Assembly (NCBI GenBank): GCA_902603095.1
Contig: CACKTS010000002.1
Location: 3,652 to 67,651, forward strand
DNA: 64,000 nucleotides
Source: an uncultured Alphaproteobacteria bacterium
GTDB lineage: Bacteria > Pseudomonadota > Alphaproteobacteria > HIMB59 > GCA-002718135
Direction: 5' to 3'
Numbering within the stretch: position 1 is the stretch's first letter; each line of letters begins with the position of its first letter. Below are positions 22,167 through 25,638 of this stretch, one piece after another. Below the pieces are notes generated by a model that saw nothing but the letters and a program-made list of their open reading frames with translations, was not told the origin of the DNA and searched no databases. The position numbers and the translations under genes were made by a program.

Positions 22167-23600
22167 TTAAACATCATAATAAAGATTAAATTCATGGGGA
22201 TGTGGTCTTAGATCCATTGGACTTACTTCATTTTCTCTTTTGTAAGCAATATAAGTTTCTATGTTATCTTTAGTAAATACATCACCTTTTAACAAATATT
22301 TATGATCTTTCTCTAATGCATCAAGAGATTCAGCAAGTGAACCAGGCGTAGAAGGGATTTTTGCAAGAACACTTTCAGGAGCTTCATAAATATTAATGTC
22401 TGTTGGTTTTCCTGGATTTATTTTATTTTTAACTCCATCTAGTCCTGCCATTAATATTGCTGAAAAAGCTAAATAAGGGTTTGATGAAGGGTCAGGACAT
22501 CTAAATTCAATTCTTTTAGCTTTTGGACTAGCAGTGTAATTATTTGGTATTCTCACTGAAGCAGTTCTGTTAGCAGCAGAATAAGCAATATTTACAGGTG
22601 CTTCAAATCCAGGTACCAATCGTTTATATGAATTTGTTGTAGGTGCGCAAAATGCCAATAAAGAAGGTGCATGTTTAAGTATCCCTCCAATATAATGTAA
22701 TGCAAAATCACTTAAATCTGCATAGTTACCTTTTTTATACATTAGTGTTTTATTTTTTTTCCAGATACTAGAATGAACATGCATGCCTGATCCATTATCT
22801 TCAAAAAGTGGTTTTGGCATAAATGTTGCAGTAAGACCATGAAGTTTAGCAACATTTTTAACAACATATTTATATCTCAATAAATCATCAGCCATTAACA
22901 AAAGTGGTGAGAATTCTAAATCAATCTCACATTGTCCACCTGTTGCAACTTCATGGTGAGAAGCTTCAACATTAATACCAATATCTTCCATTGTTAAAAC
23001 CATTTCAGTTCTTACATCTTGCAAACTATCAGATGGAGGTAATGGGAAGTAACCTCCTTTATGTCTTGGTTTATGACCTAAATTCGGGTTTTCATCTTTT
23101 CCTGTGTTCCATGCTCCTTCAGCAGAGTCTACTTCATGAAAAGCAAAATTAGAACCTGAATCATATTTAACATCATTAAATACAAAAAACTCAGCTTCAG
23201 GACCAAAATATGCTGTATCACCCATACCAGAAGATTTAAGATATTTTTCTGCTTTTTTTGCAATATATCTAGGATCTCTCGCATAACTTTCATAAGTAAT
23301 TGGATCAACAACATCACAAGTAAATGCAATTGTTTTTTCAGAGTAAAAAGGATCAATATATCCAGTAGTTACATCAGGAACCATTGCCATATCACTATTC
23401 TCTATTGATTGAAAACCTCTTACGGATGATCCGTCAAAACCAACACCATCTTTAAATAAATCTTCAGTTAAATACTTAACTGGAATAGAAATATGATGAG
23501 TCGATCCAGGCAAGTCTGTGAAACGAAGATCAACCATTTTAATTTCTTCATTTTTAATTTTTTTTAATAACTCTTTTGGAGTTTTACAGTTATATTTCAT
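22167..23600 (-). CDS. glnA: glutamine synthetase type I
   Basis: About 477 aa from ATG 23600 ([14 protein letters not shown]...), which has a GAGGT RBS 7 nt upstream. The track start at 23636 is an upstream extension. Motifs: ...GSGMHVHSS..., ...[13 protein letters not shown]..., adenylylation-loop NIYEAP. Confidence 0.95.
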
Positions 23601-23689
23601 AATTACCTCATGTCTAACATTGACTAATCTCACCAATTGAAATTAGTTTATTACTTATTCATGCTCTAGTTATGAAATCTGCTTTTAAT

Positions 23690-23737
23690 GCGTTCCTTCA
23701 GCTGAAGCTTACTTCCGACCCAAAAGGGTTGAACGAT
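23690..23737 (-). promoter_or_regulatory. glutamine riboswitch aptamer (glnA RNA motif), glnA-proximal copy
   Basis: Minus-strand RNA AUCGUUCA-ACCC-UUUU-GGGU-CGGAAGUA-AGCU-UC-AGCU-GAAGGAACGC. P1 is CGUUC/GAACG. The conserved CGGAAGUA and GAAGGAACGC cores match the glnA RNA motif as I recall it. Confidence 0.75.
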
Positions 23738-23752
23738 TTATAACTTTTGCAT

Positions 23753-23808
23753 GCGTTCCTTCGGTCAAAGACCTACTTCCGATTTAAGAAAATCTTAAAT
23801 TGAACGAT
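23753..23808 (-). promoter_or_regulatory. glutamine riboswitch aptamer (glnA RNA motif), glnA-distal copy
   Basis: Minus-strand RNA AUCGUUCA-AUUUAAG-AUUUU-CUUAAAU-CGGAAGUA-GGUC-UUU-GACC-GAAGGAACGC. It has the same 26 core nucleotides as the proximal copy. Both hairpins differ in sequence but remain fully paired. Confidence 0.75.
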
Positions 23809-23849
23809 TAAAAGCCTTTTATTAATTTTAATAAAAAAGTAAAGTTAAT

Positions 23850-24191
23850 TTAGACAGCATCACTGTCTTTTTCACCAGTTCTTATTCTTATAACTTGATC
23901 TATATTGTAAATGAATATCTTACCATCGCCAATTTTTCCTGAATATGCAGCATTTTTTATTGCATCTGTTACTTTTTCAGCGTCCTCATCTTCGACTATT
24001 ACTTCTAATTTCATTTTAACAAGAAATTCATCATCATATTCTTGATTATTTTCAATGCCACCGCTAGATCCTCTTTGTCTTCCAAAACCCTTAACATCAG
24101 TAACTGTCATACCTGATATACCAACCTCATGTAAGGCTTCTTTTACAACAGATAACTTAAATGGTTTTATTATTGCTTCAATTTTTTTCAT
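23850..24191 (-). CDS. glnB: nitrogen regulatory protein P-II
   Basis: 113 aa. MKKIEAIIKPFKL..., GFGRQ..., B-loop SGKIGDGKIF, C-terminal IRIRTGE. The T-loop apex is divergent (RGSSGGIENNQEYDDEF) but a Tyr is retained at the position equivalent to Tyr51. Confidence 0.9.
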   Translation of the reverse strand: MKKIEAIIKPFKLSVVKEALHEVGISGMTVTDVKGFGRQRGSSGGIENNQEYDDEFLVKMKLEVIVEDEDAEKVTDAIKNAAYSGKIGDGKIFIYNIDQVIRIRTGEKDSDAV

Positions 24192-25345
24192 ATAAATGAA
24201 AGTCTATAAATTGCTTCTTCTAAATTTTCCATTGAATTCGCATAACTTAATCTTATAAAATTTTCAGCTGTTTCTCCAAAACTTTTACCTGGAACTAGAG
24301 CAACTCCTTTTTCTTCAAGCGCTATATCAGAAAACCTCTGTCCATTTAGTCCAGATTTTGAAACATTAGGAAAAGCATAAAATGCACCTCCTGGTTTAAA
24401 GCATGTCATGTTATTAAGCTTATTTAATTCAAAATAAATAAATTCTTTTCTTTTTTGAAATTCTTTTTTTATTTTTTCAACTTCATTTTTAGGACCTTTC
24501 AATGCTTCAATTCCAGCATATTGAGAAATTGAATTTGGACATGAATGATCATTTACACAAAGTTTATTGGCATGCTCATACAACTTTTTAGGCCAAACAC
24601 TCCAGCCAAGTCTCCAACCTGTCATGCAAAATGTTTTGCTCCAACCTTCTAAAACTATTAATCTTTCTTTTAATATTTCATAATTTAAAAGAGACGGCAT
24701 TTTTTCATCTTCAAATATAATTTTACTATATATTTCATCAGATAAGACAAATACCTCAGGATACTTTTCTAACATTTTAACAATTTTTTCTATTTTAAAT
24801 TGATTCATAAATGCACCTGTTGGGTTATTAGGATTATTAATAATAATTAAGCTAGTTTTATTTGTTATTAGTTGCTCTAACTTTTCAATATTAATTTCAA
24901 AATTATCCTCTTCAGAAAGTTTTAGAGGAATACCTCTAGCGCCACTAAAATTGATCATCGAACGATAAATTGGAAATCCTGGATCAGGATAAATTATTTC
25001 ATTCTCCTCACCTCCTAAAATAAGACATGAATAAAAAATGGTTGGCTTACCTCCTGGTGTGATTAAAATTTGATCAGGGCTAACATTAACTTTATAATCT
25101 TTATTAATTTTTTCAGATACCGCTTCTCGTAAAGGTAGGATCCCATTTGACGGTGTGTATCCATGATGCCCATCTTTAATGGCTTTTATTGCAGCTTCTT
25201 GTATATTTGATGGAGTTGGAAAATCTGGTTGTCCTATACCTAGATTGATAATATCCCTACCTTCTGAAATAAGTTTTGTTGCTTTAGCAAGTATCGCAAA
25301 AGCTGATTCTGTCTCTAAATTAATTATTTTTTTTGAAACTTTCAT
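24188..25345 (-). CDS. pyridoxal-phosphate-dependent aminotransferase class I/II (aspartate aminotransferase-like)
   Basis: 385 aa. ...INLGIGQPDFPTP..., ...NNPNNPTG..., PLP-lysine context WSKTFCMTGWRLGW. ATGA overlap with glnB. Confidence 0.85.
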   Translation of the reverse strand: MKVSKKIINLETESAFAILAKATKLISEGRDIINLGIGQPDFPTPSNIQEAAIKAIKDGHHGYTPSNGILPLREAVSEKINKDYKVNVSPDQILITPGGKPTIFYSCLILGGEENEIIYPDPGFPIYRSMINFSGARGIPLKLSEEDNFEINIEKLEQLITNKTSLIIINNPNNPTGAFMNQFKIEKIVKMLEKYPEVFVLSDEIYSKIIFEDEKMPSLLNYEILKERLIVLEGWSKTFCMTGWRLGWSVWPKKLYEHANKLCVNDHSCPNSISQYAGIEALKGPKNEVEKIKKEFQKRKEFIYFELNKLNNMTCFKPGGAFYAFPNVSKSGLNGQRFSDIALEEKGVALVPGKSFGETAENFIRLSYANSMENLEEAIYRLSFI

Positions 25346-25400: not shown

Positions 25401-25478
25401 GGCGAACGTAGCTCAGTTGGTTAGAGCGCGGCCTTGTGGTGGCCGATGTCGTGGGTTCGAATCCCATCGTTCGCCCCA
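25401..25478 (+). tRNA. tRNA-His (anticodon GUG) with genomically encoded G-1, discriminator C73 and CCA
   Basis: G(-1)+GCGAACG acceptor pairing with CGUUCGC. D arm GCUC-AGUUGGUUA-GAGC. Anticodon arm CGGCC-UUGUGGU-GGCCG. T arm GUGGG-UUCGAAU-CCCAU. Ends C-CCA. Confidence 0.95.
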
Positions 25479-25553: not shown

Positions 25554-25638
25554 GGGCCGATGGTGGAATTGGTAGACACGCTAGATTTAGGTTCTAGTGC
25601 CGCGAGGTGTGAAGGTTCAAGTCCTTTTCGGCCTACCA
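25554..25638 (+). tRNA. tRNA-Leu (anticodon UAG), long variable arm, CCA encoded
   Basis: Acceptor GGGCCGA/UCGGCCU (G1:U72). Anticodon arm CUAGA-UUUAGGU-UCUAG. Variable arm GCCGCGAGGUGU. T arm GAAGG-UUCAAGU-CCUUU. Ends ACCA. Confidence 0.95.

Follow-up and report, generated by a model that had tools for sequence, protein, structure and literature searches.

The DNA that we analysed, referred to below as the window, is a stretch of 64,000 nucleotides (64 kb) from a marine alphaproteobacterium related to HIMB59, with a G+C content of 27%. On its minus strand, the gene for a P-II nitrogen regulatory protein (glnB) precedes the gene for glutamine synthetase (glnA), and a spacer of 249 nt (23849..23601) separates the glnB stop codon from the glnA ATG. 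The two genes and the elements next to them are as follows.

23850..24191, minus: glnB, P-II nitrogen regulatory protein, 113 aa; ORF with a Pfam P-II match (PF00543, E = 8.5e-33); the upstream gene
23853..23867, minus: hairpin GACAG-UGAUG-CUGUC at the 3' end of glnB, directly before the UAA stop; read from the sequence and kept in relatives
23816..23843, minus: promoter-like element for glnA; -35-like TTTACT (23843..23838), 16-nt spacer, -10-like TAAAAG (23821..23816)
22167..23600, minus: glnA, glutamine synthetase type I, 477 aa; ORF with Pfam matches to Gln-synt_C (E = 1.7e-133) and Gln-synt_N (E = 1.8e-30); the putative regulated gene

A first-pass annotation had described a 249-nt spacer with two repeated units as the longest non-coding stretch in a window with about 3% noncoding DNA. 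Reading the minus strand confirmed the spacer and the units, and the remaining statement was roughly right. With the gaps at the window ends set aside, three larger internal gaps in our ORF cover turned out to hold ORFs (infA-like, small zinc-finger-like, and two of 272 and 319 aa), and the spacer is the longest internal gap, but the crude cover left 7% of the window uncovered.

The hairpin at the 3' end of glnB is possibly the stem of a glnB terminator. It is followed by UAAUUUUUC in most relatives and has one apparent compensatory variant (GAUAG/CUAUC in L185); the terminator scan made no call on it in the window. The promoter-like element scored under the threshold of the consensus scan, and CTTTAC(T/A) is kept at constant spacing in almost all of 55 leaders, even at some loci that have a gene other than glnB upstream. 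The predicted glnA transcript start would fall at about 23810..23808, at the first aptamer.

Both units in the spacer run from AUCGUUCA to GAAGGAACGC, unit 1 from 23808..23801 to 23762..23753 and unit 2 from 23737..23730 to 23699..23690. The minus-strand sequence bore out that they lie 15 nt apart (23752..23738) and share 26 identical core nucleotides (8 + 8 + 10), and a further 89 nt, from 23689 to the ATG at 23600, lead to glnA. A covariance-model search with the Rfam glutamine riboswitch, RF01739, matched both units on the minus strand over the full length of the model (positions 1-53 of 53), with 59.9 bits at 23808..23750 and 66.5 bits at 23737..23687, far over the gathering score of 35 bits; the E values were 1.6e-12 and 1e-10, with the whole 64-kb window as the search space. 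The earlier assignment to the glnA RNA motif therefore stands. The Glutamine-II (Downstream-peptide) model, RF01704, stayed below threshold on aptamer 2 (19.1 bits versus 33, on 23738..23696) and gave nothing on unit 1.

23750..23808, minus: glutamine-I aptamer 1 (RF01739); P1 pairs 23806..23802 with 23758..23754
23800..23794 with 23788..23782, minus: hairpin P2 of aptamer 1
23773..23770 with 23766..23763, minus: hairpin P3 of aptamer 1
23753, minus: 'linchpin' C of aptamer 1, 3' of P1
23687..23737, minus: glutamine-I aptamer 2 (RF01739); P1 pairs 23735..23731 with 23695..23691; P2 is ACCC/GGGU and P3 is AGC/GCU

In each unit an invariant P1 (CGUUC/GAACG) encloses two hairpins, and the RNAalifold consensus fold agrees. 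The hairpin pairings described earlier were correct for AUUUAAG/CUUAAAU and GGUC/GACC in unit 1 and for ACCC/GGGU in unit 2, and the 4-bp AGCU/AGCU of unit 2 needs a minor adjustment: AGCU-UC-AGCU would leave a 2-nt loop, so this P3 is realistically 3 bp (AGC/GCU) with a UUCA loop. Across 52 orthologous leaders, aptamer 1 showed compensatory changes in 7/7 pairs of P2 and 4/4 pairs of P3. In aptamer 2 such changes reached three of the four P2 pairs and two of the three P3 pairs. The argument from covariation between the two units thus holds in orthologous leaders as well, where every hairpin pair that varies in either aptamer has compensatory changes. The junction strings CGGAAGUA and GAAG (loop E), the linchpin G, and the C after P1 were invariant in both units in 52/52 leaders. 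Over all of the tested helices, 94.2% of cells could pair in these leaders, versus 86.4% in shuffles and 29-40% with slid partner columns. Judged from these matches and alignments, the spacer units are almost certainly two tandem glutamine-I riboswitch aptamers in the 5' leader of the glnA mRNA.

Linker, block, and leader hairpin

The 89 nt after aptamer 2 had been described as free of an intrinsic terminator, leaving the expression platform unexplained. Our consensus scan of 23400..24300 agrees on the first point, with no intrinsic terminator found there, including between aptamer 2 and glnA. On the second point, this stretch contains a conserved block and a covarying hairpin that together are a plausible candidate platform. 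The elements of the leader are listed here.

23735..23753, minus: linker with its flanking C residues, CAUGCAAAAGUUAUAAAUC; 5' strand of the proposed helix P0
23659..23679, minus: conserved block GAUUUCAUAACUAGAGCAUGA; 3' strand of P0 and proposed anti-start-codon element
23678..23670, minus: 5' part of the block, AUUUCAUAA, complementary to the glnA start region
23624..23646, minus: hairpin P4, CUAAUUUCA-AUUGG-UGAGAUUAG, between the block and the Shine-Dalgarno sequence
23594..23609, minus: glnA initiation region; Shine-Dalgarno sequence GAGG(U) at 23609..23605, AUG at 23600..23598
23602..23594, minus: start stretch UUAUGAAAU, able to pair with the block (from the sequence and the minimum-free-energy fold)

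The segment CAUGCAAAAGUUAUAAAUC spans from the nucleotide after P1 of aptamer 1 to the first nucleotide of P1 of aptamer 2, and P0 adjoins both P1 helices with zero intervening nucleotides on the continuous strand. In the 52 aligned leaders the linker is nearly invariant, the block columns are invariant or nearly so, and pairing is possible in 100% of cells for P0a and 95% for P0b/c. RNAalifold found P0 independently. The duplex energy of P0 lies between -9.0 and -12.8 kcal/mol in all 32 of the 32 distinct linker/block combinations, and cognate pairs are more stable than swapped ones (permutation p = 0.0011). The distance from linker to block, 44-56 nt, depends on how long aptamer 2 is. Two variants of the linker, GUUAG and GUUUG, tend to co-occur with the block variant GAACUUUC, a correlation that is suggestive and not strict; L159 has this block variant with the common linker.

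Within CAUGCAAAAGUUAUAAAUC, GUUAU-AAAU mimics the glnA start region UUAUGAAAU, and the minimum-free-energy fold of the leader pairs the 9 nt of UUAUGAAAU with the block. Pairing between block and start region is possible in 94.9% of cells, versus 31-52% with slid partner columns. Of about 100 upstream windows, the linker is the one that pairs best with the block in 63/72 leaders, and the best downstream complement of the block lies on the translation initiation region in 79% of the 72, figures that amount to only a handful of independent observations because the leaders are phylogenetically related. The position of the complement differs by leader type. In glnA-type leaders it falls on the start codon. 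In several amt-type leaders and at the glnA loci L155 and L178, UUCCAU in the block complements the Shine-Dalgarno sequence AUGGAG(G). In the ATP-grasp type, the complement of CCAUAG falls on GUUAUAACUAUGGU, which, read by eye, appears to be the start (CUAUGG) of a short upstream ORF. Some amt-type leaders have the 3' strand of P4 as the best block partner.

Tests for compensatory change in the 52 leaders gave no such support to P0 or to the block:start pairing, whose columns are invariant. Since P0a, most of P0b/c, and the block:start pairing do not vary, their support is conserved complementarity and not compensatory change. A pair that never varies argues neither for nor against a structure. 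Part of the block:start complementarity could be kept for other reasons, because coding constraints (AUG AAA) act on the start region. P4 showed compensatory changes in 9/9 pairs across the same leaders and was predicted by RNAalifold; its place in the masked fold is that of the apical hairpin.

We folded the leaders with nearest-neighbor models, which ignore tertiary structure, ligand, and ribosomes. When the nascent window RNA was 156 or 192 nt long, P0 had a probability of about 1.0, and in the full 241-nt leader, block:start pairing had a probability of 1.0. With the aptamers forced, P0 and the masked state of the window leader are 2.7 kcal/mol apart. Over 65 leaders, P0 had a median probability of 0.997 in nascent RNA, which fell to 0.11 for the full leader. 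The two folds differed by a median of 1.3 kcal/mol, and forcing P0 raised the unpaired fraction of the initiation region from 0.39 to 0.55. P0 was still the equilibrium fold of the full leader in several amt-type leaders.

Two other candidate elements were discarded. The working idea of a conserved mini-ORF at the AUG of the block (GCAUGA; MNK* in the window, MK* or MI* in relatives) was dropped: there is no Shine-Dalgarno sequence, neither length nor sequence is conserved, and stops are frequent in A+T-rich DNA. A 9-bp pairing in the minimum-free-energy fold, between GCUUUUAAU just upstream of aptamer 1 and AUUAAAAGC in the tail after aptamer 2, is kept in the closest relative only and probably sits at or upstream of the transcript start.

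A candidate platform and its alternatives

The binding site for glutamine is the base of P1, and G23 and C60 form a pair (PMC11477058, PMC6698751). In Synechocystis, the equivalent C68 and the next nucleotides pair with the ribosome binding site (PMC6212724), and glutamine binding "melts a short helix attached to P1" according to the same paper. By analogy, we propose one translational platform common to both aptamers, which would consist of three mutually complementary elements: the linker as a mimic of the start region, the block after aptamer 2 as an anti-start element, and the glnA start region itself. During synthesis the block would pair with the linker first, forming P0, and the ribosome binding site would be open and glnA translated. 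One end of P0 would be capped by the C after P1 of aptamer 1 (the linchpin C, C60 in crystal-structure numbering) and the other by the first C of P1 of aptamer 2 (C1), which is part of a glutamine-contacting base pair. Glutamine binding would take these C nucleotides for the aptamers and melt the helix attached to P1, and the freed block could then pair with UUAUGAAAU over the AUG and turn glnA translation off. The outcome would be negative feedback of glutamine on glutamine synthetase, in which the melting step proposed for the cyanobacterial ON switch is inverted by one extra element.

We infer that glutamine frees the block and turns translation off because, in the published structural work as cited by later papers, glutamine melts the helix attached to P1; the OFF direction is thus drawn by analogy. 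Negative control of glnA has been termed "reasonable" (PMC6212724), and the genes found behind this design (glnA, amt, and the ATP-grasp gene) are all nitrogen-assimilation genes. Resting on folding models and this analogy, the shared-platform OFF mechanism as a whole has, in our estimate, slightly better than even prospects of being right. The broader reading is evenly poised between true and false: the tandem would be one device and not two switches, with aptamers that clamp both ends of the linker:block helix, a linker that serves as a decoy of the initiation region, and glutamine at either or both ends releasing an anti-initiation block. The cyanobacterial ON logic would thereby become OFF logic for glnA, amt, and other assimilation genes in genomes labelled uncultured Alphaproteobacteria, Pelagibacteraceae, MarineAlpha5, and SAR116.

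Transcription attenuation is one alternative, which we consider unlikely. P4 and a U-rich tract would form a terminator, the block, when free of P0, would pair with the 3' strand of P4 as an antiterminator (or the reverse), and glutamine would set the read-through into glnA. P4 is indeed the best-supported new helix, with 9/9 pairs covarying, and in many relatives 5-7 of the 8 nt after it are U (UCUUUUUAAC in L124-L137, UUUUGUUG in the L046 group). However, the scan found no terminator in the window, where the tail 3' of P4, UCAAUGUU, has just 4 U in 8. The tails of the relatives range from 2 to 7 U in 8, with just 2-3 in L140, L158, L161, L162, L174, and L178, and therefore the U-tract is not conserved though the hairpin is. 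The 3' strand of P4 is the best downstream complement of the block in L130, L136, L133, L140, L159, and L174, but this complementarity is not kept across clades, as in the L046-group P4 (GGGUA/UACCC). P4 also fits the translational model, as the apical hairpin joining the block and the start region.

The same architecture could also work with the opposite sign, an arrangement to which we likewise assign a low probability. Bound aptamers would stabilize P1 and, by stacking, P0, and the block would be sequestered and glnA translation raised at high glutamine, as in the gifB ON switch. The only experimentally characterized glutamine riboswitches are ON switches (PMC6212724, PMC6698751). The full leader at equilibrium favors the masked state, and therefore a ligand that locks P0 would have a target; the direct abutment of P0 on both P1 helices, with no nucleotide between them on the continuous strand, also suits such stacking. 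On the other hand, glutamine would then switch on its own production and the uptake of ammonium, a physiologically perverse outcome for glnA and amt. In the bound state, moreover, the linchpin pair requires C60 (23753) and the glutamine-contacting pair requires C1 (23735) (PMC11477058, PMC6698751); both residues also belong to the end pairs of P0. The melting upon binding of the helix attached to P1, as described in PMC6212724, also argues against an ON switch.

A third alternative, which we regard as doubtful, is that P0 serves as a folding scaffold only, keeping the aptamers in register, with regulation elsewhere (mRNA stability, Rho, or independent aptamers) and a fortuitous complementarity between block and start codon. 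The aptamers can mispair with each other because their P1 strands are identical, and the unconstrained minimum-free-energy fold of the window leader does swap them, joining a 5' strand from aptamer 1 to a 3' strand from aptamer 2, which makes mispairing a genuine hazard. P0 forms with the P1 helices either allowed or disallowed, the block:start pairing lacks compensatory change, and a review lists tandem glutamine riboswitches as pseudocooperative, with multiple expression platforms (PMC9481103). Against a mere scaffold, the block complement follows the initiation region where that region is different (UUCCAU/AUGGAG in several amt-type leaders, L155, and L178; CCAUAG/CUAUGG in the ATP-grasp type). 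The 15-nt linker is too short for a separate platform of aptamer 1, a point also made in PMC5066625, and in most glnA leaders the two folds are nearly isoenergetic (the median gap of 1.3 kcal/mol), which is what a switch would be expected to show. Finally, two copies with the same 26 core nucleotides, separated by 15 nt, might suggest a recent DNA duplication or protein-binding DNA sites and no functional RNA, but this is effectively refuted by the covariance-model matches (E values of 1e-10 to 1e-12) and the leader covariation, given hairpins that differ wholly in sequence between the copies while keeping their pairing, an arrangement kept with covariation in relatives down to 65% GlnA identity, and a linker-block distance (44-56 nt) ill-suited to a fixed DNA-binding dimer.

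Relatives and known systems

The tandem, linker, block, and P4 occur together upstream of marine GlnA relatives of 97% to 65% identity, wherever there is sufficient upstream sequence. They are absent upstream of the two G+C-rich GlnA relatives inspected, L179 and L180, which are 57-59% identical. A look-up with the exact sequence of the window GlnA matched no recorded protein. A pattern scan of genome contigs for the tandem junction returned at least 120 stretches, and a regex filter found the full aptamer in 31 of those listed; we take the remaining listed stretches to be chance matches, with several hundred estimated for an 18-base pattern with a variable gap. Among the matches listed, tandems of this design come from marine genomes, single-cell or metagenome-assembled, with the labels uncultured Alphaproteobacteria, Pelagibacteraceae, MarineAlpha5, and SAR116, a taxonomic list that is a sample and not a census. 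By Pfam, the genes behind related arrays are glnA, amt, and the ATP-grasp gene. Gammaproteobacterial tandems and triplets (SAR86, TMED104, and others) have other linkers and no block, so the linker/block model is not general to all tandem glutamine riboswitches.

The annotation alone is ordinary, as a riboswitch of a textbook class in an arrangement published more than 10 years ago. Reports from 2010-2011 already cover the glnA RNA class, its occurrence in tandem, and its location ahead of glnA in marine metagenomes, as well as doublets and triplets associated with glnA, P-II, GOGAT, and amt (PMC2864571; also PMC5066625 and PMC9481103, citing Ames and Breaker 2011). The statement in the first-pass annotation that the motif precedes nitrogen genes, sometimes in tandem, was correct (PMC2864571). 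For tandem glutamine riboswitches, no expression platform had been identified (PMC5066625), and according to a 2018 study neither the effect on glnA nor the taxonomy of the marine glnA-associated examples was known (PMC6212724). A shared linker/block platform has no description in the accessible literature, in which Ames and Breaker 2011, like Ren et al. 2015, is represented by the papers that cite it.

What is new here is thus the host groups of the tandem arrays and a candidate platform common to both aptamers. The window and its relatives assign the hosts of the marine glnA-associated riboswitches, called unknown in 2018, to HIMB59-like alphaproteobacteria, with the same tandem design in Pelagibacteraceae- and SAR116-labelled genomes. 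The complementarities among linker, block, and start codon provide a specific model open to mutational tests. If true, it would supply the missing expression platform and a structural reason for the tandem layout, and it would mean direct glutamine feedback on the translation of glutamine synthetase in some of the ocean's most abundant bacteria. Streamlined bacteria of this kind have few regulatory proteins. Direct RNA feedback from glutamine to glutamine synthetase and ammonium transporters would be central to their nitrogen control.

At the level of the aptamer, we found no difference from Glutamine-I (RF01739): the P1 (CGUUC/GAACG), the junction strings, the linchpin G and C, and the position 5' of a nitrogen-assimilation gene are all the same. 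Glutamine-II (RF01704) has a related ligand pocket and common core strings (PMC6698751), but it is a pseudoknot and not a three-way junction, and the window aptamers are not members. The Synechocystis gifB riboswitch belongs to the same class, with a single aptamer, a post-P1 C68 (= C60) in a helix proposed to melt, and control of initiation in a translational ON switch (PMC6212724). In gifB, the ribosome binding site is the immediate partner of the post-P1 strand, an arrangement that gives ON control of a glutamine synthetase-inactivating factor. Here, in contrast, a block is interposed: the post-P1 linker would pair with it, and the block in turn is complementary to the start codon. The predicted direction is OFF, the target is glnA, and two aptamers flank the helix.

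As in the tandem glycine riboswitch, a gap of a few nucleotides separates two aptamers for one amino acid in the window leader, and, as proposed here, the two share one platform. The glycine aptamers make tertiary contacts with each other, whereas we propose coupling only via the two ends of one shared helix. The earlier suggestion that the tandem may sharpen the response as in glycine riboswitches finds no support in the literature, where tandem glutamine aptamers showed no cooperativity in vitro (PMC5066625, citing Ames and Breaker 2011). The SAM-II/SAM-V tandem of 'Candidatus Pelagibacter ubique' likewise comes from a marine alphaproteobacterium that is streamlined and depends on regulation by RNA (PMC5066625, PMC11508383). 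It joins two aptamer classes with a platform each, one transcriptional and one translational, whereas the glnA leader has one aptamer class and one proposed shared platform.

Two glutamine-riboswitch aptamers between glnB and glnA

The spacer between glnB and glnA spans 249 nt, with the glnA ATG at 23600 on the minus strand. It contains two units of the same form, separated by 15 nt, and unit 2 ends 89 nt before the ATG.

24191..23850, minus strand: glnB (P-II), from the open reading frame (ORF) and Pfam
23808..23753, minus strand: unit 1 (aptamer 1), AUCGUUCA-hairpin-CGGAAGUA-hairpin-GAAGGAACGC
23737..23690, minus strand: unit 2 (aptamer 2), AUCGUUCA-hairpin-CGGAAGUA-hairpin-GAAGGAACGC

Rereading the minus strand reproduced exactly the form and both distances given in the first-pass annotation, together with the 26 core nucleotides shared by the units and the hairpins that differ in sequence yet remain paired. 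The AGCU/AGCU hairpin of unit 2 does pair, but it must have 3 bp and a 4-nt loop rather than the 4 bp originally assigned.

We compared the whole window with Rfam 15 and obtained two full-length matches to RF01739 (glutamine riboswitch, glnA leader), with scores of 59.9 and 66.5 bits (gathering score, 35 bits); the Downstream-peptide (Glutamine-II) model stayed below its cutoff in the covariance-model check (19.1 bits versus a threshold of 33). In an alignment of 52 distinct orthologous glnA leaders, every variable pair of helices P2 and P3 in both aptamers showed compensatory changes. For the complete structure tested, pairing was kept in 94.2% of cells, versus 86.4% in shuffles and 29 to 40% with partner columns slid. 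Because the scores exceed the threshold and P2 and P3 covary, the earlier assignment to the glutamine riboswitch is correct; its observation is confirmed and its interpretation supported. Both units are almost certainly glutamine-I riboswitch aptamers.

Neither the riboswitch class nor its arrangement is new here, since the motif, its tandems, and its position before glnA in marine metagenomes have all been published. A 2010 report described the glnA RNA motif, associated it with P-II, glutamine synthetase, GOGAT, and amt genes, and noted that it sometimes occurs in tandem (PMC2864571); a 2022 review tallied 157 doublets and 4 triplets (PMC9481103). A marine-metagenome riboswitch before glnA was noted in 2018, when the effect of glutamine on glnA and the taxonomic affiliation were not known (PMC6212724). 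To this, our analysis adds an assigned host group and, for the expression platform that earlier work had not identified, a specific model open to testing.

Conserved elements downstream of the aptamers

The first-pass annotation had found neither an intrinsic terminator nor an anti-Shine-Dalgarno sequence in the 89 nt between aptamer 2 and the glnA ATG, which left the expression platform unexplained. This stretch contains a conserved block, complementarity to the start region, and a hairpin, P4. Besides the aptamer cores, three elements were conserved in all 52 aligned leaders: the linker between the aptamers with the block, the pairing of the block with the glnA start region (block:start), and P4.

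23753..23735, minus strand: linker with flanking C residues, CAUGCAAAAGUUAUAAAUC
23679..23660, minus strand: block, GAUUUCAUAACUAGAGCAUG, complementary to the linker
23646..23624, minus strand: hairpin P4, between the block and the Shine-Dalgarno sequence

The proposed linker:block helix, P0, has three segments (P0a to P0c): CAUGC/GCAUG, GUUAU/AUAAC, and AAAUC/GAUUU. Among about 100 upstream windows, the linker was the best partner of the block in 63 of 72 unique tandem leaders, a count that, like our other leader counts, overstates independence because the sequences are related. For each of the 32 distinct linker/block combinations, the duplex energy lay between −9.0 and −12.8 kcal/mol; cognate pairings outscored swapped ones (p = 0.0011), and RNAalifold found P0 without being supplied with it. 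The same linker and block precede amt and ATP-grasp genes in SAR116 and in genomes labelled uncultured Alphaproteobacteria and Pelagibacteraceae; this alphaproteobacterial type was not found in the gammaproteobacterial tandems listed.

At its 5' side, the block contains AUUUCAUAA (23678..23670), the perfect complement of UUAUGAAAU (23602..23594), which spans the glnA start codon. This pairing was present in 94.9% of cells across the 52 leaders, versus 31 to 52% with partner columns slid, and in 79% of 72 leaders the block's best downstream complement coincided with the initiation region. The block varies along with the initiation region, reading UUCCAU where the Shine-Dalgarno sequence is AUGGAG(G) (several amt-type leaders and the glnA loci L155 and L178). 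Since the block is complementary to both the linker and the start region, the linker (GUUAU-AAAU, compared with UUAUGAAAU) looks like a decoy of the start region. One C of the block, a bulge in P0, is paired to the G of AUG when the alternative fold forms.

The best complement of the block in ATP-grasp leaders is GUUAUAACUAUGGU, which, read by eye, appears to place CCAUAG against CUAUGG, where a short upstream ORF begins. In four such leaders, from marine single-cell genomes labelled uncultured Alphaproteobacteria (L004, L089, L094, and L107), this ORF (about 19 codons, some 35 to 95 nt after the block) separates the block from the circularly permuted ATP-grasp gene. At its start, CUAUGG complements the block, and at its end the stop codon overlaps the start codon of the main gene (UGAUG), an arrangement that suggests translational coupling of the ORF and the gene.

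P4 showed covariation in 9 of 9 pairs. Termination control is possible in relatives where a U-rich tract follows P4, and many relatives have such a tract; in the window the tail after P4 is UCAAUGUU, and a terminator scan of 23400..24300 found no site, in agreement with the first-pass annotation. P0a, most of P0b and P0c, and block:start showed no variation in the glnA set, so their support consists of conserved complementarity and class-to-class tracking, not compensatory substitutions. A three-way constraint among start codon, block, and linker would freeze these columns, an argument that is circular.

Folding of the leader and a candidate switch

With the aptamers forced, the P0 fold of the 241-nt window leader had −42.6 kcal/mol versus −45.3 kcal/mol for the start-masked fold. 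The probability of P0 was about 1.0 in 156-nt and 192-nt transcripts, which end after the block and after P4, respectively; when the start region was included, the ensemble turned to block:start (probability 1.0). Across 65 leaders, P0 had a median probability of 0.997 in nascent RNA, falling to 0.11 in the full leader, and the P0 and masked folds differed by a median of 1.3 kcal/mol. When P0 was forced, the share of the initiation region left unpaired increased from 0.39 to 0.55. In these models, which leave aside tertiary structure, ligand, and ribosomes, the leader would behave as expected of a kinetically controlled switch. P0 stayed the equilibrium fold in several amt-type leaders, and the block of amt-type leaders sometimes paired best with the P4 3' strand.

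The P1 strands are identical in both aptamers, and for this reason the unconstrained minimum-free-energy fold of the leader (23811..23571) swaps them: the aptamer 1 5' strand pairs with the aptamer 2 3' strand, and the linker becomes the loop of a hairpin formed by the inner strands. As modelled, this fold would destroy both binding pockets, and P0 would exclude it.

Glutamine sits at the base of P1, touching the C1:G59 pair, and a junction G inserts and pairs with C60, the nucleotide directly after P1 (PMC11477058, PMC6698751). The first nucleotide of P0 in the window is C60 of aptamer 1 (23753) and the last is C1 of aptamer 2 (23735); both aptamers would therefore compete for its two closing G-C pairs. 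Were glutamine to melt P0, the block would be released to mask the start codon, and high glutamine would turn glnA OFF. The tandem layout might then be explained by a single helix held at its two ends. In the model proposed for Synechocystis, the post-P1 strand pairs with the ribosome binding site and glutamine thereby switches gifB on (PMC6212724); our model is the same mechanism with one inverter added, predicting OFF where that system is ON. For glnA and amt, OFF is also the sign that physiology would lead one to expect. We somewhat favor the linker/block/start platform as proposed and, given this platform, consider the OFF direction reasonably likely.

Neighboring features, host, and distribution

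23816..23843, minus strand: promoter-like element, −35-like CTTTAC(T/A), 16 nt, then a −10-like hexamer (TAAAAG- or TAATTA-like)
23853..23867, minus strand: hairpin GACAG-UGAUG-CUGUC, closing the glnB coding sequence directly before the UAA stop

The promoter-like element, between glnB and aptamer 1, was conserved in nearly all of 55 leaders and was kept also at some loci where the upstream gene is not glnB (L096, L151, L155, and L159). We read it as a putative promoter of glnA's own, with a predicted transcript start near 23809. The glnB-end hairpin is conserved in relatives, with an apparent compensatory change (GAUAG/CUAUC) in L185, and is followed by UAAUUUUUC in most of them. It may be the glnB terminator, and glnA would then be a separate transcript. 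The T-loop region of the window P-II (23850..24191) reads GRQRGSSGGIENNQEYDDEF; that of Escherichia coli GlnB is GRQKGHTELYRGAEYMVDF, uridylylated at Tyr51. The window P-II apparently has no Tyr aligned with Tyr51, so canonical GlnD modification presumably may not apply. Two tRNA genes (25402..25475 and 25554..25635) lie near upstream of the locus. L006, L073, L096, and L155 contain a comparable pair, similar in spacing (about 80 nt) and in scores; in the last two it adjoins the riboswitch and glnB is absent.

The window has a G+C content of 24 to 30%. Among the matches listed, the closest genome by GlnA is "Alphaproteobacteria bacterium MarineAlpha5_Bin12" (L096; 88% identity). MarineAlpha5 is related to HIMB59 (PMC8879329), a SAR11-like lineage reported to have the glnB-glnA arrangement, which Pelagibacter ubique lacks (PMC3870248).

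A tandem-junction pattern scan of the genome collection returned at least 120 stretches; among the matches listed, a regular expression recovered the full aptamer in 31, and about 30 were true doublets or triplets. Hosts among these matches were marine single-cell genomes labelled uncultured Alphaproteobacteria, a Pelagibacteraceae metagenome-assembled genome, SAR116, MarineAlpha5, SAR86, and other Gammaproteobacteria. The genes that followed, again among the matches listed, include glnA and genes for ammonium transporters, for a circularly permuted ATP-grasp protein, for divergent homologues of glutamine synthetase (23 to 26% identical to GlnA), and for a 201-aa protein whose N terminus resembles a signal peptide. 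Arrays in SAR86 and other Gammaproteobacteria (L052, 2171..2345; L086, 7360..7528; L103; L118) have three aptamers, or two with a different, 24-nt linker that folds into a hairpin, CGUUAGUCGGAUAACG; the alphaproteobacterial block is absent from these four. They precede either a divergent glutamine-synthetase homologue or the 201-aa protein, which we take to be possibly an outer membrane protein.

A metagenome scan with the first 160 GlnA residues gave 80 loci. The same tandem occurred in marine GlnA relatives from 97% down to 65% identity wherever the contig reaches far enough upstream, and it was absent from the inspected upstream regions of two G+C-rich relatives with 58 to 59% GlnA identity (L179 and L180). 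In the glnA leader of L171 (metagenome contig LUMB01001714.1), the linker runs straight into the 3' part of aptamer 2; about 50 nt are missing, and one intact aptamer and the block are kept. This reflects either a natural deletion or an artifact of assembly between the two repeats.
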